Source: a virus
Taxonomy: Duplodnaviria > Caudoviricetes
Direction: 5' to 3' (one strand)
Virus record (IMG/VR): IMGVR_UViG_3300030419_006251
Location: 136,761-200,760 of that record
Length of the DNA: 64,000 nucleotides
Shown one piece after another: positions 31,977-58,008 of the stretch. How positions within the stretch are numbered: the first letter of the stretch is position 1; every line of letters begins with the position of its first letter. Made by a program: the position numbers and the translations under genes. The notes beneath the pieces are model-generated. The model saw only the letters and a list, made by a program, of their open reading frames with translations, did not search any database and had not been told where the DNA came from.

Positions 31977-31992
31977 AATTTCCTTAATTTTG

Positions 31993-32125
31993 AGCCCATA
32001 GTGGGTGTATTACTCGCTCCAACACCATACTATCCCCTCTTTAATTTACCTTTTTAAAGCTCACCTCCCTAAAGGTCCGGCTCGTTAGAGGCATAGAACC
32101 GCAACTACCATTTGCACTATGGACT
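31993..32125 (-). ncRNA. Candidate structured RNA (multi-branch, 11-bp closing stem)
   Basis: Intergenic; AGTCCATAGTG...CACTATGGGCT closing stem enclosing several short hairpins. Confidence 0.35.
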
Positions 32126-32489
32126 ATTTTATTTTTAAATCAGTAAAATATTCCTCAGTCTCATATTTTTTCTGCAATAAGTAAAGTGTTTTAAGATCGA
32201 TTCCTAGAAACAATGCTGCTTCTTTTTTTGTACTGCATGCACTTAAAGCATACTTAAAAGTTGCATCTTTAGCAATGTCTGTTAAAGAATTCCACAAAGG
32301 AATTCCGTATAATTTACCACCAGCTGCCTTGGCTGCTAGTTCTAATTTGAGACCTATAATTTCTTCTAAGCTCAAATTATTAAGCATAATTTCAAATTCA
32401 GTATTACTTTTTTTTGATTTCCTAAGCTTCGAAGCTATACTATAGTTTGTATTAGCTCCTTTTCTTTTATTTTTTCTTTTAAAGCTCAT
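32124..32489 (-). CDS. Hypothetical protein with Fis-like C-terminal HTH
   Basis: KYALS...KKEAALFLGIDLKTLYLL. Confidence 0.55.
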   Translation of the reverse strand: MSFKRKNKRKGANTNYSIASKLRKSKKSNTEFEIMLNNLSLEEIIGLKLELAAKAAGGKLYGIPLWNSLTDIAKDATFKYALSACSTKKEAALFLGIDLKTLYLLQKKYETEEYFTDLKIK

Positions 32490-48279: not shown

Positions 48280-48558
48280 TTATACTTCATGTAGTACGGC
48301 ACTGAGGGATTGCATTAAAGCTACTGCAAGTTGTTCACTCTCTGTAGACAATGTAGACAATCCTGTTACACTTTTATTATCATTGGCCTCGGTGGTTTTC
48401 CGTTGCAACTCATTGAGCCCGTTAGCTAGTGTCACAAAGGTGGCAGACAAAGCGAGGTTGTCACCGAATGCCATGGCTCTGCAAGTGTGTCGCTCAAAGA
48501 GTGTAACATTATTTATAACTGGAATACCCTTGATCATATCCTCTTCTGTGTAATACAT
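48280..48558 (-). CDS. Hypothetical protein
   Basis: 92 aa ORF. Confidence 0.5.
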   Translation of the reverse strand: MYYTEEDMIKGIPVINNVTLFERHTCRAMAFGDNLALSATFVTLANGLNELQRKTTEANDNKSVTGLSTLSTESEQLAVALMQSLSAVLHEV

Positions 48559-48933
48559 TTACTTTATTCTCTCCTTTATACCCTCGATGTGTTTGCATTT
48601 ACGACGATAGCTATACCCAATGCAAGTACAACTGAAAAAAATCTGGCGCGAATCGCTCTGATACTCGGTCACGATATATTCACTCCCTCTCGACCCCATC
48701 ACCTTCCACTCTCGACCCTCGCGCGGGGCGGCTGGCTGCTTCTCTCGGCGCTTCACCACCATGTATCGGGGCAAGTCCTCAAAGGTGGTGCTCGGAGGCA
48801 CTGAGAGCCATTCTGAGCCGCTGACTGCATAAGTGCCTGATGGTAGTCTCGTGATGCACGGAGGCCAGTCAACCTCGATGGGGCTGACCGGCGGAGTGTG
48901 CAAAGGTTTATTATCAATCGCAGTCAATGGCAA
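48559..48933 (-). CDS. SWIM zinc-finger protein
   Basis: GSRGSEYIV...FSCTCIGYSYRRKCKHI. Confidence 0.8.
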   Translation of the reverse strand: MPLTAIDNKPLHTPPVSPIEVDWPPCITRLPSGTYAVSGSEWLSVPPSTTFEDLPRYMVVKRREKQPAAPREGREWKVMGSRGSEYIVTEYQSDSRQIFFSCTCIGYSYRRKCKHIEGIKERIK

Positions 48934-50158
48934 TAATCCTCTCGTTGGTCTGGAAGTACGGACGCTGGGCGTAATACTTAGTCGTCATCCACATACGCTG
49001 ACACTTGGATGGAATGGGCTTGGGAGCCATGAGATCCGTCAGGACGATGTGACCGTCGAACCCGTGATCGTTGACATACTTGGTCGGAGGGTTGAAGTCG
49101 GTGCCGCCGTAGCGCACACGGACCCACTTGCGCTTCTCGTTACGCTTCCACACATGAATAAAATCTTCTGCAACCTCGGTATCAAAGGGGATTACCGTGA
49201 ACTCAGCTAGCTCGGCCAGCTTGTTCAACTCAGAGAAGAACGCGGCCAGCATGCCATCATCAACAGAACCGGACTGATCGATGCTGATCGCGATACGAGC
49301 TTGACGACGGACCTTAGAGCCTGCATGGATGTAGGGGTAACGCTTATTCAGGCGCTTCACCGTGCGAGTCTTGTTGGACCGTTGAGAGGTTTTAATGAAG
49401 TACCGCAGCACTTTGCGCCAATCAACCTTAGAGGCGATACGGTCAAGGATGTCGCGACGGCACTCACCAGACACGGAACCCCAGCTATTGGCCTTCTGAG
49501 CCTCTTCTGCAGCCTTCTTGACTGATTCCTTTAGACGCTCCTTCGCGATGTCCTGAGCGGCCCCCTGGCCCTCGCCCCAGCCACTATGATCATCAAAGCT
49601 GTCGCCAAGCTGATCGGATGGGTCGCCGGATCCTCCACCTTCGCCGTCGCCCTGCTGTTCGTCCTGCTCTTCCTGCTTCTTCTTGAGAGCAGCAAAATAA
49701 TGCTCCGCGCTCTTGCCCTTTTCCATATCCGCAAATGGGCCCTCACCGGGCATGCAGCACTGTTCGGGCAACTCGCCGACAAGGTGAGAGTTGATCGCAA
49801 GATCCGTGGCGATGTTCCACATTTTAGACATGCCACCATCGGGCAAACGACCAGTGACATGCTCAAAGACAAGATGATAGAACTCATGCTTGAGCACTCC
49901 AGCACGCTGGACATCTGGCAGCTTCGCAAAGAAGGCCGGATTGTAGAGCATTTCAAAGTGACCATCATCAGTCACGCGAACACCAGCAGTCGGGATCGCG
50001 CCCGATGCCTTCTTGTTGATGCGTCGAGAGAGGGCCGCAAAGAACGGCTCGTCAACGAGTAGACGCGCGGTGTGACGATTCAAGTCAAACTCTGCCACTG
50101 CAGCGGCTAGCTCCTCGGGAGTCATTTCGGGCGCGGGGGATGAAACGGGCTGGGTCAT
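48914..50158 (-). CDS. Putative metallopeptidase + VWA-like domain protein (DUF2201 type)
   Basis: TAGV..MLYNP.F; VLKHEFYHLVFEH; WNIATDLAIN; ISIDQSGSV; GGTDFNP; IVLTD. Confidence 0.85.
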   Translation of the reverse strand: MTQPVSSPAPEMTPEELAAAVAEFDLNRHTARLLVDEPFFAALSRRINKKASGAIPTAGVRVTDDGHFEMLYNPAFFAKLPDVQRAGVLKHEFYHLVFEHVTGRLPDGGMSKMWNIATDLAINSHLVGELPEQCCMPGEGPFADMEKGKSAEHYFAALKKKQEEQDEQQGDGEGGGSGDPSDQLGDSFDDHSGWGEGQGAAQDIAKERLKESVKKAAEEAQKANSWGSVSGECRRDILDRIASKVDWRKVLRYFIKTSQRSNKTRTVKRLNKRYPYIHAGSKVRRQARIAISIDQSGSVDDGMLAAFFSELNKLAELAEFTVIPFDTEVAEDFIHVWKRNEKRKWVRVRYGGTDFNPPTKYVNDHGFDGHIVLTDLMAPKPIPSKCQRMWMTTKYYAQRPYFQTNERIIAIDCD

Positions 50159-50181
50159 AGAAATCTCCTTGCTATACTATA

Positions 50182-50236
50182 AATATAGCATGGTGAGGCG
50201 AAAAGGTCAAGGCTCAAGCTGTCAAGAGAATGTCAA
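50182..50236 (-). promoter_or_regulatory. Triple -35 early promoter, copy 1
   Basis: TTGACA-5-TTGACA-9-TTGACC-17-TATATT. Confidence 0.8.
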
Positions 50237-50535
50237 ATGTCCTCTTCACACGCTCTCGCCTCCTTATCAAGCTCTGCGAGGTCTTCAGCGACATCGGCGA
50301 CGGTCATGGGCCGGTCCTTTCGTCGCTTGGCAGCTTCTCGATCCAACCTCCCCCATCGACGCGATCCGTTTGGATGCTCGCACAAGTGGAGATCGGTGAT
50401 TCCAAGGGCTGTGTAGCGTTTCAGGGCCGTCTGAGTGGCTCGGAGGGTGTCGGGACGGGTTAGCACTGTCTCGTACCCTGAGAGCCGTCCTGCGGCGTCT
50501 AAGTTGACATGCGTGCGGCTGATATAGTATTTCAC
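50233..50535 (-). CDS. Hypothetical protein (GTG start, 100 aa)
   Basis: MKYYISRTHV...; stop is the TGA inside a promoter TTGACA. Confidence 0.55.
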   Translation of the reverse strand: MKYYISRTHVNLDAAGRLSGYETVLTRPDTLRATQTALKRYTALGITDLHLCEHPNGSRRWGRLDREAAKRRKDRPMTVADVAEDLAELDKEARACEEDI

Positions 50536-50627
50536 TATCGGCCCTCGTAGAAAGCGCAGACGGGGATCCCGACGAGTGCGGTGCTCCAAAGAGCGATGAT
50601 GATGGATGATGCGATGATTGCTGTCAT
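50535..50627 (-). CDS. 30-aa membrane peptide (not in ORF track)
   Basis: MTAIIASSIIIALWSTALVGIPVCAFYEGR with AGGAGG SD. Confidence 0.5.
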   Translation of the reverse strand: MTAIIASSIIIALWSTALVGIPVCAFYEGR

Positions 50628-50664
50628 GATATGCCTCCTATGGCGATTGAGTAAAGGTTTAATA

Positions 50665-50740
50665 TGGTGGGCCCTGTCGGATTTGAACCGACGACTATCC
50701 CGTTATGAGCGGGGCGCTCTTACCACTGAACTAAAGGCCC
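50665..50740 (-). tRNA. tRNA with CAT anticodon, probably Ile2 (lysidine type)
   Basis: GGGCCTT acceptor, loop CTCATAA, GGTTCAAATCC, CCA; acceptor resembles Ile2 rather than initiator Met. Confidence 0.88.
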
Positions 50741-50744
50741 GGAA

Positions 50745-50820
50745 TGGTGGGTCAACTGGGACTCGAACCCAGAACCTACGGCTTAAAAGGCCGGTGCTCT
50801 ACCCGTTGAGCTATTGACCC
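50745..50820 (-). tRNA. tRNA-Lys(TTT)
   Basis: GGGTCAA acceptor, loop CTTTTAA, GGTTCGAGTCC, CCA. Confidence 0.95.
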
Positions 50821-50822
50821 GA

Positions 50823-50908
50823 TGGTAGCTGCGGCGGGAGTCGAACCCGCATGCTCATTGGAGCGAGAGATTTTAAGTCTCTTGTGTCTACCGTTCCACC
50901 ACGCAGCC
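50823..50908 (-). tRNA. tRNA-Leu(TAA)
   Basis: GGCTGCG acceptor, AGAGA-CTTAAAA-TCTCT, long variable arm, GGTTCGACTCC, CCA. Confidence 0.95.
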
Positions 50909-50917
50909 AAGGTTTAT

Positions 50918-51985
50918 TTACTGCTGGGACTCTCCAGTCAATAGTTCGACAAGATAGCCACTGACGGATGTACCATCTGCGGCAGAGGACTGGTGAAGCT
51001 CAACAGTATTCTGGATCTCACCGTTGCCCAGAACAACCCACAGCTTCATGGCTACCTCGGATGGCAGCGTGACGAAATAGTTAGCAAGGTTCTGTACCTG
51101 CTCGGCGGGCAGAGCCTCTGCGAAAGCTGCGGTAGCCTCCATCTTCTCGACTAGTGCGCTGTGATCGTTGATCGTGAAATCACTGGTGCGGTCAATCTCA
51201 CCCTTGACCAAAATATCCTCGACCGTCACCTGACGGGAATAGTTGGTGAAGAAGTCCTGCAGTGCAACGGCAGCTTCAAAGCCAACAAACGCTGCAGCGA
51301 GGTTAAAGATCGTACCCGCGTCTGCGTCCTCACCAAGGAGATCCGCGCCGGTCGCTGCCTGATTCAGGCGATCCCAGGAACGACGAGAAGGGTATACCTT
51401 GTTCGGCTCAAAATCGCCGGTGTGCTCAAGGTGATTACGGTTCTGATTGATGAAATCCCAGACCAGACCATCAACCTCGGTCTTGGCCCAATCAAGCCAG
51501 TCCTCGTGGGAAGGCTCGACATCGAAGACCGTGTAGCGGTCAAGCTCCGCAGGATCCATTTCGCCGACCTGATACTGTGCGCCGTGCTCGCCACCGTTGA
51601 CGGCTGCGACAATGATGGTGTCAGCGTGGAGGCTGAAACCGGCCAGCTTGCGACTGTCGGTCAACTCAAAGATGCCTTGACGGACCTCGGGAGTCGCACG
51701 GTCAACCTCATCGAGGAAGAGCACCACAGGCTCATCACAGGCAGTCTTGAACCACGCGGGCGGGTTCCAAGTGGTGACAGCACCGTCAGTGCTCGGAAGG
51801 CCAAGAAGATCGCCCTCAGTCATCTGAGAGGCGCGGCGCTCCACAACCGGGAGTCCGAGATCGCCCGCCAACTGGTAGACAACCTGAGATTTGCCCACAC
51901 CGTGACGGCCACGGAGCAGCACGGGAAACCGTGCAGCGGTGACATGAGGGACGATAGCGCGAAAGGTCTTGAAATCAACTGCCAT
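50918..51985 (-). CDS. MoxR-like AAA+ ATPase
   Basis: Walker A GRHGVGKS, Walker B VLFLDEVDR, AAVN, MDPAELDR, SRRSW. Confidence 0.9.
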   Translation of the reverse strand: MAVDFKTFRAIVPHVTAARFPVLLRGRHGVGKSQVVYQLAGDLGLPVVERRASQMTEGDLLGLPSTDGAVTTWNPPAWFKTACDEPVVLFLDEVDRATPEVRQGIFELTDSRKLAGFSLHADTIIVAAVNGGEHGAQYQVGEMDPAELDRYTVFDVEPSHEDWLDWAKTEVDGLVWDFINQNRNHLEHTGDFEPNKVYPSRRSWDRLNQAATGADLLGEDADAGTIFNLAAAFVGFEAAVALQDFFTNYSRQVTVEDILVKGEIDRTSDFTINDHSALVEKMEATAAFAEALPAEQVQNLANYFVTLPSEVAMKLWVVLGNGEIQNTVELHQSSAADGTSVSGYLVELLTGESQQ

Positions 51986-52036
51986 GATAGGACTCCTTAG
52001 TCGAGGGGGCGAGGGTTCATCCCTCGCTACATTATA

Positions 52037-52091
52037 AATATAGCACAGTGGGGGGAAAAGGTCAAGGACATTCTTGTAAAGAGAATGTCAA
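52037..52091 (-). promoter_or_regulatory. Triple -35 early promoter, copy 2
   Basis: TTGACA-5-TTTACA-9-TTGACC-17-TATATT; a fourth hexamer TTAACA lies 11 bp further upstream. Confidence 0.8.
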
Positions 52092-52099
52092 GAAGATGT

Positions 52100-52624
52100 T
52101 TAACTTACCAGCGTGAAGGCATCGGCCCGGTCGCTGATCTCAGAAATCGAGGTTGTAGGCGCGGTTTGAGAAGGCTTAAGAAGTTTAATCCTGAAGCCAC
52201 CCCAGTCACCATCCCACATGAAGTGGTCGATCACCAGACCTTCGCCGTGATGCTGATGGCACACAAGCGATCCTATGCCGATGGGCTTGGGACGCTCAGA
52301 AATCAGTTCCATGGCCTCGCTGCGCTCGATAGGCTCACCGTCCAAGAAGACCGTATCGGAGGGCTCAGAAGGGCTCTCAGGGGCCTTAAACACAAAGTCA
52401 TCCCAGTCGAGGACGAAATCAATCGCGTTGCAGGCTTCGTGACCAGCCTCGGTCAGATCCCATTCGGGCGGGTGGATGCTGGTTCGCACGGCAAGTCCAG
52501 CCAGCACGAGCATATCCAGATGAGCGCGATTCGGCTCAAGCTCGCCCATGTGCATAAGTGCGTGCCATTCGTCCTCGGTCAGCTTGAGGGCGCGAAGGTC
52601 AGAAGTGGTCGGGGTGTCAGTCAT
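52100..52624 (-). CDS. Hypothetical protein with C-terminal SH3-like segment
   Basis: IGIGSLVCH...EGLVID...FRIKL; SD AAGGAG. Confidence 0.55.
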   Translation of the reverse strand: MTDTPTTSDLRALKLTEDEWHALMHMGELEPNRAHLDMLVLAGLAVRTSIHPPEWDLTEAGHEACNAIDFVLDWDDFVFKAPESPSEPSDTVFLDGEPIERSEAMELISERPKPIGIGSLVCHQHHGEGLVIDHFMWDGDWGGFRIKLLKPSQTAPTTSISEISDRADAFTLVS

Positions 52625-52653
52625 CGGGTAGCTCCTTGCTCGATTACCCCTGT

Positions 52654-52708
52654 ATTATCTCACAGGGGAGAGGGAAAGTCAATAGAAAGTTTGTCAAGAG
52701 AATGTCAA
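52654..52708 (-). promoter_or_regulatory. Triple -35 early promoter, copy 3
   Basis: TTGACA-5-TTGACA-9-TTGACT-17-GATAAT. Confidence 0.75.
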
Positions 52709-52710
52709 GA

Positions 52711-53439
52711 CTACTCGTCACCCTGTTCACGCCAGAACCAGTAGTCGCGCTTTGCGCCCTTCTCAAAAATATCCACGCTGGCATAATCGAGGTTGGAAGC
52801 CGCTTCCCAGCCTGCTGGTGGCGTCGGCACAACATGGGCACGACTCAGGATAGTCACCGTGTTCCATCGGCTGGAAGACTGCGTGACTTCGCTCGGGAAC
52901 GAGAGCACACAAGGTTTATTATCCGTCACTCGACGCGCGATGATGGCAGCGGGCCACTTGGCTTTGCGGTGAATCGTGTCCCACTTGATGCCCGTGACGA
53001 TACACGGAGTCACCGTGCCATACTCATCATGCGACAGGAGAGTGCCGGGACCGACGCCATGTTCACGCATCGCATCCAACACGGTGCGTCGAGTCTCGAC
53101 GGTCAGAGCAGCGTAACGCTCACGATCTGCCTTTTGCTGCGGGCATGTGCGTCGGTTATGTCCGTTCTCCCCGCAATAGCCGCACACGCGGCCTCCGTGG
53201 GTCGCTCGGCGACGGCGTTTGCTTTCGCCCGTGATTGGATCTTCTCCGATGCGCTTGGCTAGCTTTTCGCGAGTGCGCTGATAGGTATAGTCGTCTTCTG
53301 GTCGGGATCCATTCTCGACCTCTTTCCGTAGTCGTTCAAAGCGGTGAGCCATTTGCTCCGTCAACTTCTCGCAGCTTGCGCGGTTGTGGCCTCGCTCGTA
53401 GCAGTGGCCGCATCGAATAGTTCCAGAATAGTTACCCAT
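52711..53439 (-). CDS. Protein with two CCHC zinc knuckles
   Basis: CGHCYERGHNRASC and CGYCGENGHNRRTC (CX2CX4HX4C). Confidence 0.8.
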   Translation of the reverse strand: MGNYSGTIRCGHCYERGHNRASCEKLTEQMAHRFERLRKEVENGSRPEDDYTYQRTREKLAKRIGEDPITGESKRRRRATHGGRVCGYCGENGHNRRTCPQQKADRERYAALTVETRRTVLDAMREHGVGPGTLLSHDEYGTVTPCIVTGIKWDTIHRKAKWPAAIIARRVTDNKPCVLSFPSEVTQSSSRWNTVTILSRAHVVPTPPAGWEAASNLDYASVDIFEKGAKRDYWFWREQGDE

Positions 53440-53484
53440 GTAAAATCTCCAGTGTCAGAGGGTTCAACTCGTTCTTACCCTATA

Positions 53485-53539
53485 AATATAGCCGATATAA
53501 ACGAGGAAGTCAAGGTTAAAGTTGTAAAGAGAATGTCAA
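53485..53539 (-). promoter_or_regulatory. Triple -35 early promoter, copy 4
   Basis: TTGACA-5-TTTACA-9-TTGACT-17-TATATT. Confidence 0.8.
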
Positions 53540-53549
53540 GAGAGGTTAA

Positions 53550-53725
53550 AGAGTGAGTCCGGTCGATGATCGCTGTCCTTGCCGCGTCTTCCTCACCAGC
53601 TTTGTTTTAACTCCCTCGCGGGTTCGCACGCGCATCTACCGTGTTCGGTGACTCTCGCCGTGCAGTGGGTTCATTCAAAGCGTTGAACCCCACCTTTAGT
53701 TTACTATTTCGACCGGACTCACTCT
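53550..53725 (-). ncRNA. Candidate 176-nt structured RNA with perfect 17-bp closing stem
   Basis: AGAGTGAGTCCGGTCGA (53550-53566) / TCGACCGGACTCACTCT (53709-53725); internal hairpins including CCC-GCGA-GGG; fully intergenic. Confidence 0.65.
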
Positions 53726-53733
53726 AGAAAGGT

Positions 53734-54546
53734 TTATTTTACTTTTCGCGCTGCTTTAAGGTGGCGTTCCTCGATAATCACGGGGCGTGCCCCACCGACC
53801 GGCAACACGCTATACTTCTTCGCGCCACGGGCTGCGCTAGTCACTGGTGCAGCGTCGGTCTTGATGACAACGCAAGGCTTATTTCCAGTGCCCCAACGGG
53901 CGCTAGAGGGCGCGGAAGCCCTAAGAGCGACAAATGACCCTGCCGCGTATTTCGGGGCGCTCAGAGTGGCCTCAATGACCTTCTGGGCGTACTTGTTCTC
54001 GACCATCTTACGGTACTGCTTTTGGGTCGGAACGCCATCGGCCAGCACCTTTGTGACAACACCTTGAAAATAGCTTGTCGTCTGGTAGTAACGCGCGGCG
54101 ATGACAGCGCGGTCACGCGGAGACACACCCTTCTCGTCTGGCGAGGTATAATCAGTCGCCCATGTAGCTGCTGCAGCCATGGCCTCATCACTGTTTTCGC
54201 GCTCGATCTTCTCAAGAATCTGTACCTGCTTGGGACTGAGATCACGCCCACCCTGTACCTGTAGGCTCAGACTCATCACAAAGCGGCTAGCCCATGCATC
54301 ATCGCTTACACGCTCTGACAGTGCGCTCAGACGCTTGATCATGGTGCCGCCGCGCTTTGCTGCCTCGGCCAGCTTCTCGGCGCTATAGCGGTCCTCAAGC
54401 TCTCTAACGCAACGCGCTCGGCCAGAGGTCAGGCGACCTTTGCTCTTATAGTAGTGCTGCAAGCTCTCGCAGAACTGACGATCCCGCTGTGAGAGCGGGC
54501 GGGCGAGAAGAGCGATGAAGCGGTCGGCGTAAGTCAGACGGGGCAT
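53734..54546 (-). CDS. Hypothetical protein, repeated LSxKQ helical units plus C-terminal SH3-like domain
   Basis: ATG at 54546 with AAGGAG SD; LSQRDR/LTSGR/LSPKQ/PTQKQ units; GSFVALR...CVVIK...YSVL...LKAA. Confidence 0.6.
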   Translation of the reverse strand: MPRLTYADRFIALLARPLSQRDRQFCESLQHYYKSKGRLTSGRARCVRELEDRYSAEKLAEAAKRGGTMIKRLSALSERVSDDAWASRFVMSLSLQVQGGRDLSPKQVQILEKIERENSDEAMAAAATWATDYTSPDEKGVSPRDRAVIAARYYQTTSYFQGVVTKVLADGVPTQKQYRKMVENKYAQKVIEATLSAPKYAAGSFVALRASAPSSARWGTGNKPCVVIKTDAAPVTSAARGAKKYSVLPVGGARPVIIEERHLKAARKVK

Positions 54547-54569
54547 AGAATCTCCTTGGTTACGCATAT

Positions 54570-54624
54570 AATATAGCCTATGCGCGGGCAGAAGTCAAGT
54601 CAGGAAATGTCAGGGAAATGTCAA
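54570..54624 (-). promoter_or_regulatory. Triple -35 early promoter, copy 5
   Basis: TTGACA-5-CTGACA-9-TTGACT-17-TATATT. Confidence 0.8.
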
Positions 54625-54830
54625 ATCGTAAAATCAATGATTGCAACTCCTCTTTCGGGCTGCTCATCTTCATCGACTTTATGCATGGGCGATTCATAAT
54701 CGCGTGGATCGTGGAGCGGTTCGATGGGATCGGGGGCGCGTAGCTGCAGTGGCGGCTGTCCATCTGGGTGCTCGCGGCGCATAAGGTCGAGGATGACACT
54801 GATCGGAAGGGTCGGATGCATATGATTCAC
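54621..54830 (-). CDS. Hypothetical protein
   Basis: 69 aa; AAGGAG SD; stop inside a promoter TTGACA. Confidence 0.6.
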   Translation of the reverse strand: MNHMHPTLPISVILDLMRREHPDGQPPLQLRAPDPIEPLHDPRDYESPMHKVDEDEQPERGVAIIDFTI

Positions 54831-54845
54831 TCCTTGCTTGCCTAT

Positions 54846-54900
54846 AATATATAGTATTCTGGGGCTGAAATCAACCCTTTTCTTGTAAAGGATTTGTCAA
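54846..54900 (-). promoter_or_regulatory. Triple -35 early promoter, copy 6
   Basis: TTGACA-5-TTTACA-9-TTGATT-17-TATATT. Confidence 0.75.
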
Positions 54901-55068
54901 CGCCTGCAAGAGCCCGCCAGTACACCATCGCTTGACACCAGTATCAGCAAAACAAATCAGATATTGATCGGTTCCTTCTGAAACCTTTAATATGATACCG
55001 GGCGGCTGACTGCCTAGTCCTCGACTCCACATCGCCAAATCGCCTACCTTAAATCTTCTATTTCTCAT
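54871..55068 (-). CDS. SH3/KOW-like array protein
   Basis: FKVGDLAMW...GIILKV...YLICF...LQAL. Confidence 0.65.
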   Translation of the reverse strand: MRNRRFKVGDLAMWSRGLGSQPPGIILKVSEGTDQYLICFADTGVKRWCTGGLLQALTNPLQEKG

Positions 55069-55388: not shown

Positions 55389-55591
55389 TAACCAGTTCCT
55401 CCCTCTTCGACCTTGTTAGCTCCCTTGCTAACAAGGTTTATTTTCCAAGGGGCGAAGTATTCGCCCGTGTGAATCTTAATCATCTTTGTGCCAAGCACCG
55501 CAGTGTCGGCAACCTCTACTATCAATGCAGTCTCGCCGGTGTCTCTGATCCTAACAAGATCGCCAACTTTCCAGGGTCTAGGGTCTTTCAC
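55388..55591 (-). CDS. SH3/KOW-like array protein (GTG start)
   Basis: MKDPRPWKVGDLVRIRDTGETALIVEV; SD GGAGGTGATC. Confidence 0.7.
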   Translation of the reverse strand: MKDPRPWKVGDLVRIRDTGETALIVEVADTAVLGTKMIKIHTGEYFAPWKINLVSKGANKVEEGGTG

Positions 55592-57772: not shown

Positions 57773-58008
57773 TATTTATCTCCTTTGAGTATGTCAAGTC
57801 TGTCAAGACCAAAATCTGAAACGGTTGCTGGTCCGTGGTATTTATAGTGTGATGAGTTGATGGCATAGTGGACAGGCTTAACCCATTTCACACGGACATG
57901 CAAAGGTTTATTATGCGAAATCACAAGGCCGATAGCGCCGTGAAACTCGGGATAGTTGCCCTCTGCTCTAAATCTAACTAACTGACCGATTAAACTCTTA
58001 TGAGGCAT
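57772..58008 (-). CDS. SH3/KOW-like array protein (78 aa)
   Basis: LIGQLVRF...IGLVIS...VRVKW...LDIL. Confidence 0.6.
   Translation of the reverse strand: MPHKSLIGQLVRFRAEGNYPEFHGAIGLVISHNKPLHVRVKWVKPVHYAINSSHYKYHGPATVSDFGLDRLDILKGDK

Follow-up and report, generated by a model that had tools for sequence, protein, structure and literature searches.

The stretch of DNA analysed here, referred to as the window, comprises the last 64 kb (positions 136,761 to 200,760) of the 200,760-bp IMG/VR virus record IMGVR_UViG_3300030419_006251 (genome G000), which is rated 100% complete by CheckV. On its minus strand, two open reading frames (ORFs) at 53734-54567 and 52711-53439, encoding proteins of 277 and 242 amino acids (p277 and p242), are separated by a gap of 294 nt, and most of this gap is filled by a 176-nt element at 53550-53725, named RNA B, which is single-copy in its own genome. 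The original prediction, made from the letters of the DNA, described this element as a candidate novel structured non-coding RNA closed by a perfect 17-bp inverted repeat. The repeat is present as described: the arms at 53550-53566 and 53709-53725, 17 nt each, are 100% complementary and have 142 nt between them. No other perfect inverted repeat spanning up to 400 nt is as long anywhere in the 200,760-bp genome, the runner-up having 14 bp, and the chance expectation of such a 17-bp repeat is about 0.005 according to our own estimate (2e5 positions x 400 spacings x 4^-17). The folding z-score of the element is approximately -5.5 on either strand (-5.4 for the minus strand, where none of 200 shuffles was equally stable); because it is alike on both strands, the strand is not picked by thermodynamics alone.

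RNA B is an evolutionarily conserved structured RNA with a long closing stem and a pseudoknot. Its closing helix, P1, surrounds a compact core that is composed of the hairpin P2, an H-type pseudoknot, the optional hairpin P3, the tetraloop hairpin P4 and a near-invariant 3' segment. The parts are as follows, in the order in which they would be read on the minus strand.

53709-53725, minus strand: 5' arm of P1, 17 nt, RNA positions 1-17, identified by the perfect inverted repeat and by covariation.
53691-53708, minus strand: J1/2, a single-stranded linker rich in A and U, without pairs in either the minimum-free-energy or the consensus fold.
53667-53690, minus strand: P2, a hairpin with a 7-bp stem (GGGUUCA/UGAACCC) and a 10-nt loop, L2, identified by alignment and RNAalifold.
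53676-53681, minus strand: 5' strand of the pseudoknot, GCUUUG, inside loop L2, pairing with 53599-53604.
53626-53663, minus strand: P3, a variable and dispensable hairpin, the base of whose stem covaries (4 of 5 pairs).
53613-53622, minus strand: P4, a CCC-GCGA-GGG hairpin with an invariant stem.
53599-53604, minus strand: 3' strand of the pseudoknot, CAAAGC, just 5' of the invariant core, identified by covariation.
53571-53599, minus strand: the conserved 3' core, CUGG(C/U)GAG-N-GACGCGGCRAGGACAGCG, with the 3-bp GCG/CGC hairpin P5, identified by alignment.
53550-53566, minus strand: 3' arm of P1, 17 nt, RNA positions 160-176, identified by the inverted repeat, covariation and RNAalifold.

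Covariation was counted on an alignment, A5, which consists of 24 rows, 20 of them distinct. Standard pairs are formed by 95.9% of the cells of A5. Shuffling of columns gives 75.4%, none of 500 shuffles attaining the observed figure, and sliding the partners by 1-3 columns gives 36-42%. Double-sided changes are found at 28 of the 41 pairs, and RNAalifold independently recovers P1-P5. In the closing helix, all 17 pairs show compensatory changes among the 20 distinct homologues, in which the 3' arm of P1 measures 13-25 nt and the arm sequences are unrelated. In P2, 97.9% of the cells are paired, two pairs being compensatory and three invariant, whereas P4 (CCC/GGG) and P5 (GCG/CGC) are essentially invariant and hence uninformative for covariation. 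The sequence of J1/2 is poorly conserved, though it remains A/U-rich. Covariation among homologues had been proposed from the outset as a check on the element, and the outcome favours a real RNA.

The evidence from the pseudoknot deserves the most weight, because its strands covary although the pseudoknot was absent from the covariance model that produced the alignment. Five of its six pairs are compensatory and 97.5% of the cells are paired; by eye, the homologues show the strand pairs GUCUUG/CAAGAC, GCCAU/AUGGC, GUCACC/GGUGAC and GUCUUA/UAAGAC. All interior helices that had been listed from the sequence are present (GGGTTCA/TGAACCC, GCACG/CGTGC around the ACCG..CGGT hairpin, and CCC-GCGA-GGG), while the pairing of L2 at 53676-53681 with 53599-53604 had been overlooked. 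When further covarying column pairs were sought in the alignment, no additional helix was found.

Two parts of the RNA differ sharply in how they are maintained. The 18-mer GACGCGGCRAGGACAGCG of the core (53571-53588) is unchanged in 19 of the 20 distinct sequences, L150 having a single C-to-U change, and in a more distant copy, from the complete genome G006, the core reads GUCGCGGCGAAGACAGCG; this invariance, a sign of selection on the core, is seen while the neighbouring proteins are only 53-81% identical. P3 varies among the homologues in both length and sequence, is absent from L071 and L130 and is very short in L033. Two homologues, L095:4541-4712 and L019:1566-1733, are near-identical in P1, P2 and the core and have unrelated P3 hairpins, the L019 version being that of L021 and L150, which implies that recombination exchanges the P3 module alone. 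In P4 the variation is confined to the loop, which in most homologues is either GNRA (GCGA, GAGA, GUGA, GCAA, GGAA) or UUCG, with a 6-nt loop in L170 and L171.

The loops of P4 also bear on the strand. GNRA and UUCG form stable tetraloops on the gene (minus) strand only, and the GNRA tetraloop that had been predicted on this strand is indeed found there, GNRA or UUCG occurring in nearly all homologues. G-U pairs outnumber A-C mismatches 35 to 15 on this strand, to which the alignment had itself been fitted, and the neighbouring genes are all on the minus strand. On the basis of the tetraloops, the G-U excess and the orientation of the neighbouring genes, we conclude that RNA B is most probably a minus-strand transcript. 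The same observations weigh on the proposal that the element acts as DNA, whether as a cruciform or hairpin recombination hotspot, as a replication or packaging signal, or as a protein-binding site. A long perfect inverted repeat situated in a hyperplastic region of shuffled cassettes, with equal fold stability on both strands, is what such an element would present; however, pairing is maintained through G-U pairs, strand-specific tetraloops and a pseudoknot are signatures of single-stranded RNA, and the arm sequences are not conserved, unlike those of a DNA site recognised by a protein. A function at the DNA level is considered very improbable.

Homologues of p277 are common in marine metagenomes, and their contigs show the element right after the p277 stop codon. 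Loci independent of p277 were added by scanning with the 18-mer GACGCGGCRAGGACAGCG or with the P4 region, and the 20 distinct homologues were recovered in this way from marine metagenomes and IMG/VR. Two covariance models were used, R1, which was built from the single sequence with the structure given above, and R2, the family model. R1 separates true members (27-129 bits) from chance matches of the 18-mer in GC-rich soil contigs; L165, L151 and L077 were rejected as chance matches or non-members. When the arm and the P2 hairpin of the window were used as exact words, no match was obtained in viral contigs because those parts vary, whereas scans with the conserved core succeeded. A stricter core pattern had no matches in 185,579 prokaryote species, each represented by one genome, and neither the element nor its 5-kb surroundings matched cultured-phage DNA by blastn and megablast. 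The length of the family members is about 135-195 nt, the minimal member, L071, having about 137 nt. The phages that carry RNA B also encode their own transfer-messenger RNA (tmRNA) and tRNAs, and as far as searched RNA B is confined to an uncultured clade of marine T4-type phages with genomes of about 200 kb.

Terminal inverted repeats around some 140 nt, with arms like the a1/a2 arms of retrons, could also belong to a miniature inverted-repeat transposable element (MITE) or to a retron-like msr/msd template. An a1/a2-type inverted repeat is indeed present (17 bp), a feature that is not specific to retrons. The caution with which the original prediction had treated the retron was justified, as a PF00078 search, to which control genomes responded, shows that a reverse transcriptase is absent from the complete 200.8-kb genome, and a retron msr/msd is thereby ruled out. 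A MITE is likewise ruled out: RNA B occurs once per genome, its arms covary and are wholly different among homologues instead of being conserved, no flanking direct repeats were seen, and the 185,579 prokaryote genomes hold no match. Occurrence at many unrelated loci, which had been named as the sign of a MITE, is thus not what is found, and, within the reach of these searches, hardly any credence is left for an origin of either kind.

Comparison with known families gave no counterpart. At gathering score, Rfam 15 finds only tRNAs and the tmRNA in the whole window; in 53400-53800, with E up to 10, there is one chance match to a microRNA (14 bits), and in six homologue and paralogue loci, with E up to 1, only the tmRNA is matched. 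The element thus belongs to no family of Rfam 15, a check that had been suggested together with the prediction, and the core sequence was not found in a relevant context in the literature searched. With 20 distinct homologues that show compensatory changes, the candidacy for a novel structured RNA is strongly supported. We rate RNA B as a new RNA family, novelty being understood relative to Rfam 15 and the literature searched, and regard it as robust as an observation. Several known classes were tried and set aside. A riboswitch is unlikely, since in most loci the element lies upstream of the next promoter and P1, with 13-25 bp, is far too stable. An RNA that acts by base pairing is unsupported, the complement of the core being no commoner in the genome than in shuffled sequence. 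A likeness of GAGGAAGAC to the P4 strand of RNase P was considered and dropped, as was one between parts of the core and 4.5S RNA or hammerhead boxes: the complementary strands and the core residues that these would need are missing, and their Rfam models are unmatched.

The compactness of the pseudoknotted core, its invariant block, the dispensable P3 and the intergenic position between co-oriented genes are also consistent with a self-cleaving ribozyme of a new class, which would process the polycistronic early transcript between cassettes. Such features are common to small ribozyme classes, many of which are found in phage intergenic regions. However, a search with E up to 10 matched no ribozyme family of Rfam, so long a P1 is not usual in known self-cleavers, and the segment CUGGCGAG, read from the sequence, resembles the hammerhead CUGANGA box without satisfying it. 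Self-cleavage is accordingly rated as a doubtful explanation.

The immediate surroundings of RNA B place it in a defined position relative to genes and promoters. The neighbouring features are listed below.

53734-54567, minus strand: upstream gene p277, 277 amino acids, with a helical N-terminal domain and a C-terminal SH3/Tudor/KOW-like barrel.
53729-53738, minus strand: the motif AATAAACCTT, recognised by its sequence, between the upstream stop codon and P1.
53485-53540, minus strand: a promoter array of early sigma-70 type directly after P1, TTGACT-17-TATATT with preceding -35-like hexamers.
52711-53439, minus strand: downstream gene p242, 242 amino acids, with two CX2CX4HX4C zinc-knuckle motifs.

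The 5' arm of P1 starts 8 nt past the upstream stop codon, and the promoter TTGACT-17-TATATT lies downstream of the element at 53513-53485, so that the placement originally proposed, between a stop codon with the motif AATAAACCTT and the next promoter, is accurate. RNA B follows the p277 stop codon in 13 distinct loci, in which the next gene varies (p242, p174, or ORFs of 67, 101 and 135 amino acids); elsewhere it follows an SH3-like mini-gene (L033 and G006) or a Dam-like methylase (L037). Its position is always after a gene end, with differing flanking genes. In the homologues the 3' arm of P1 mostly borders on the first -35 hexamer (TTGACA) of the early promoter array and in some cases extends into it, and in a few loci P1 runs directly into the leader of the next gene. 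RNA B is not found after p277 homologues with approximately 54-59% identity (L158-L164, L172), where the next gene follows immediately or, in L172, after a gap of 125 nt.

This position corresponds to that of the stem-loop in promoter-early stem-loop (PeSL) elements, which combine a stem-loop with an early sigma-70 promoter in T4-type phages (Arbiol 2010, PMC2839356; Comeau 2014, PMC4122927). To judge from the arrangement of the loci, RNA B appears to behave as a portable module in the stem-loop slot of PeSL-type terminator/promoter cassettes. It could then be a cis-acting intercistronic element, an elaborated PeSL stem-loop that ends, attenuates or stabilises the upstream early mRNA and insulates it from the next promoter, with no function in trans. 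The slot is occupied exactly, after the stop codon and immediately before the early promoter, and PeSLs have been described from hyperplastic regions of T4-type phages as small motifs composed of a terminator and a promoter (PMC4122927). A U-rich run follows P1 in a minority of the homologues (L005, L170, L071 and the G006 copy), and in G004, a partial and more distant genome, the p277-p242 junction holds just a small GC hairpin and a promoter with a triple -35 (L184:120-250; G004:C1:64830-64952). That junction looks like a simple state of the slot of RNA B. On the other side, no canonical terminator was found in a scan of 52500-55000 and most members have no U-tract; an intrinsic terminator in particular is ruled out, as that scan gave no terminator-like sites, the 'loop' would measure 142 nt and the U-run is restricted to a minority. 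A hairpin would suffice for a role in cis, which leaves unexplained the invariant 18-nt core, the covarying pseudoknot and the retention of the core across unrelated gene contexts. PeSL stem-loops are, moreover, short and present in many copies per genome, unlike the single-copy RNA B. A purely cis-acting role is therefore seen as possible, though on balance rather unlikely.

Fold searches gave no assignable function for the two neighbouring proteins. The AlphaFold model of p277 has a predicted local distance difference test (pLDDT) score of 89 and a novel helical N-terminal domain; the protein has no Pfam family, and a fold search in PDB gave no match at E below 1e-3, with weak matches only, to barrels of the SH3/Tudor/KOW type. 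The model of p242 (pLDDT 72) has a C-terminal barrel that is weakly WYL/SH3-like, its PDB fold search likewise giving only weak matches to SH3/WYL-type barrels, and no homologue was found in 50,697 cultured-phage records. The barrel matches of both proteins in PDB have E above 0.01. The zinc knuckles of p242 are of the retrovirus type, and in nearly all loci the p242 gene is a close neighbour of RNA B. A second, shorter paralogue of p277, at G000:C1:14414-14980, has an in-frame TAA. The block 48500-54500, with a GC content of approximately 55% inside a genome of 42% and without a change of strand, contains a MoxR ATPase, a zincin-vWA protein, three tRNAs, p174, p242, RNA B and p277.

The zinc-knuckle pattern of p242 is found within about 2 kb in every RNA-bearing locus that is long enough, and in none of five RNA-free loci; in view of the genomes G006 and G004, described below, the linkage between p242 and RNA B is suggestive, not proven. 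Genome-wide, the minus strand has eight copies of the motif AATAAACCTT and the plus strand has one. Its six minus-strand copies in the window lie at 48903-48912, 50909-50918, 52911-52920, 53729-53738, 55433-55442 and 57903-57912. Three of these six follow stop codons, and two of the three abut the 5' ends of tRNA-Leu (50908) and RNA B; the remaining three encode Asn-Lys-Pro within SH3-like genes. Among the homologues the motif stands upstream of P1 in L006, L012 and L021, not in all members.

A second structured RNA of the window resembles RNA B and is encoded near the tmRNA gene.

31992-32126, minus strand: RNA A, a structured RNA of about 135 nt, also found at L176:1501-1638, L177:1501-1634 and L182:1501-1639.

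Against the family model R2, the copy in the window scores just 10.7 bits. The matches of its orthologues in three further phage genomes, with 22.4, 18.9 and 33.7 bits, are weak but significant, the best genome-wide E being 8.5e-6. The closing stem of RNA A covaries across the four genomes, its GGGYUC hairpin has a loop, GCCUCU, that is able to pair with a downstream AGAGG, and the invariant 18-mer is absent. The L2 loop and core of the RNA B copy in G006 look intermediate between RNA A and RNA B. Four phage genomes, three rated complete and one (G002) 62% complete, each contain one RNA B and one RNA A-like RNA. The phage tmRNA gene always comes shortly after RNA A, at a distance of 6 nt in G006 and of about 830-880 nt in G001 and in the genome studied here. 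Judged by these features, RNA A is probably a distant paralogue of RNA B.

The reading to which we lean, tentatively and as a possibility close to even, is that RNA B is a stable RNA or ribonucleoprotein (RNP) that acts in trans. It would be cut out of early transcripts, P1 serving in its processing and protection and the core in binding. A processed stable RNA is favoured mainly because of the links to genes for stable RNAs, namely that of RNA A to tmRNA and that of the motif AATAAACCTT to tRNA-Leu. Because no promoter of its own is seen, RNA B would be co-transcribed with the upstream early gene, as the minus-strand 3' tail of an early transcript. P1 (13-25 bp) would serve as the processing and protective stem, terminator-like in some members, and would release and stabilise a discrete RNA by analogy with the stems that flank rRNAs and the leaders of tRNAs and tmRNA. 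A long terminal stem is a common trait of stable RNAs that are bound to proteins, and processing stems are typically long as well. The near-invariant pseudoknotted core would be a putative functional surface for binding or catalysis, and would most likely bind a phage or host protein, RNA B acting in trans early in infection. The first candidate partners would be p242 with its double zinc knuckle and the SH3-like p277, which are usually adjacent to RNA B. The roles suggested in the original prediction, an early-expressed decoy of RNA polymerase or of a defence protein or an antitoxin mimic, stay conjectural, expression being presumed from signals of position and strand.

Several observations weigh against the trans-acting reading. 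As RNA B has no upstream promoter of its own, its release as a discrete RNA is presumed. The linkage of p242 and p277 to RNA B may be plain synteny: in G006 the RNA is 5-10 kb from both genes, p242 being 5.3 kb away, and in the partial G004, whose p277-p242 junction is the small hairpin and promoter described above, p242 is present without a detected RNA. Finally, in L005 the upstream ORF enters the RNA for about 20 codons (L005:2022-2082; P1, J1/2 and P2), the position of the p277 stop codon reading TAC instead of TAA, which reflects a sequencing error or else a variant that reads through naturally. Such read-in would interfere with folding within the mRNA, except where processing cuts the element out or the contig contains an error.

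A bolder proposal unites the two RNAs. RNA B and RNA A may represent a new class of functional RNA of marine T4-type phages, either self-cleaving or catalytic in another way, or forming an RNP subunit with p242 and/or p277 that would act early on host translation or defence; this is regarded as unlikely. The probability left over by the trans, cis, ribozyme, DNA-level and MITE or retron readings falls to others.

It is uncommon to find a new RNA fold that is well supported and has both a covarying pseudoknot and a long invariant core, and such folds have often proved to be ribozymes, riboswitches or RNP scaffolds. RNA B is located in the fast-shuffling early region, where functions in host takeover and anti-defence are concentrated. 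With about 137 nt in L071 it is a small target that can be synthesised, which opens it to probing of its structure, to tests of self-cleavage and to the pull-down of partners, and its covariance model is usable for mining ocean metatranscriptomes. If a partner is found, RNA B would be a new example of RNA-based interaction between phage and host.

Among known RNAs, several share single aspects with RNA B. A long end-pairing helix that closes a functional interior, a similar size and loop-mediated tertiary pairing recall Y RNA/YrlA, 6S RNA and the phi29 pRNA, the last of which has 174 nt. None of these is matched in Rfam. The 6S-like reading of the original prediction fails, and 6S RNA is ruled out, as the interior is a conserved multi-branched pseudoknot and not a rod with a bubble. 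Y RNA/YrlA is ruled out as well: the genome lacks the Ro/TROVE gene (PF05731), and ARAGORN detects nothing tRNA-like in the element. T4-type phages are not known to rely on a packaging RNA.

A conceptual analogy is offered by rnaC and rnaD of T4 (species 1 and 2), stable RNAs of about 120-140 nt and of unknown function that are encoded with tRNA genes. They are phage stable RNAs that occur as a pair, like RNA B and RNA A, but rnaC carries a tRNA-like T-arm, which RNA B does not, and a search of the T4 region with R2, filters off, gave a best score of 3.1 bits. A catalogue of 10,006 unnamed candidate structured viral RNAs from IMG/VR (Fremin, Bhatt and Kyrpides 2023; PMC10690425) relies on the same data source and likewise uses covariation in intergenic regions of phages as evidence. 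The motif of RNA B is not described in its text and is absent from Rfam 15, and it may be among the unnamed candidates. A parallel in position is the PeSL, which shares with RNA B the niche of a stem-loop directly before an early sigma-70 promoter, among small early genes of a shuffled hyperplastic region. What sets the two apart is their architecture, the PeSL being short, simple and repeated many times per genome, whereas RNA B is a single-copy RNA of about 135-195 nt built around a pseudoknot and an invariant core.
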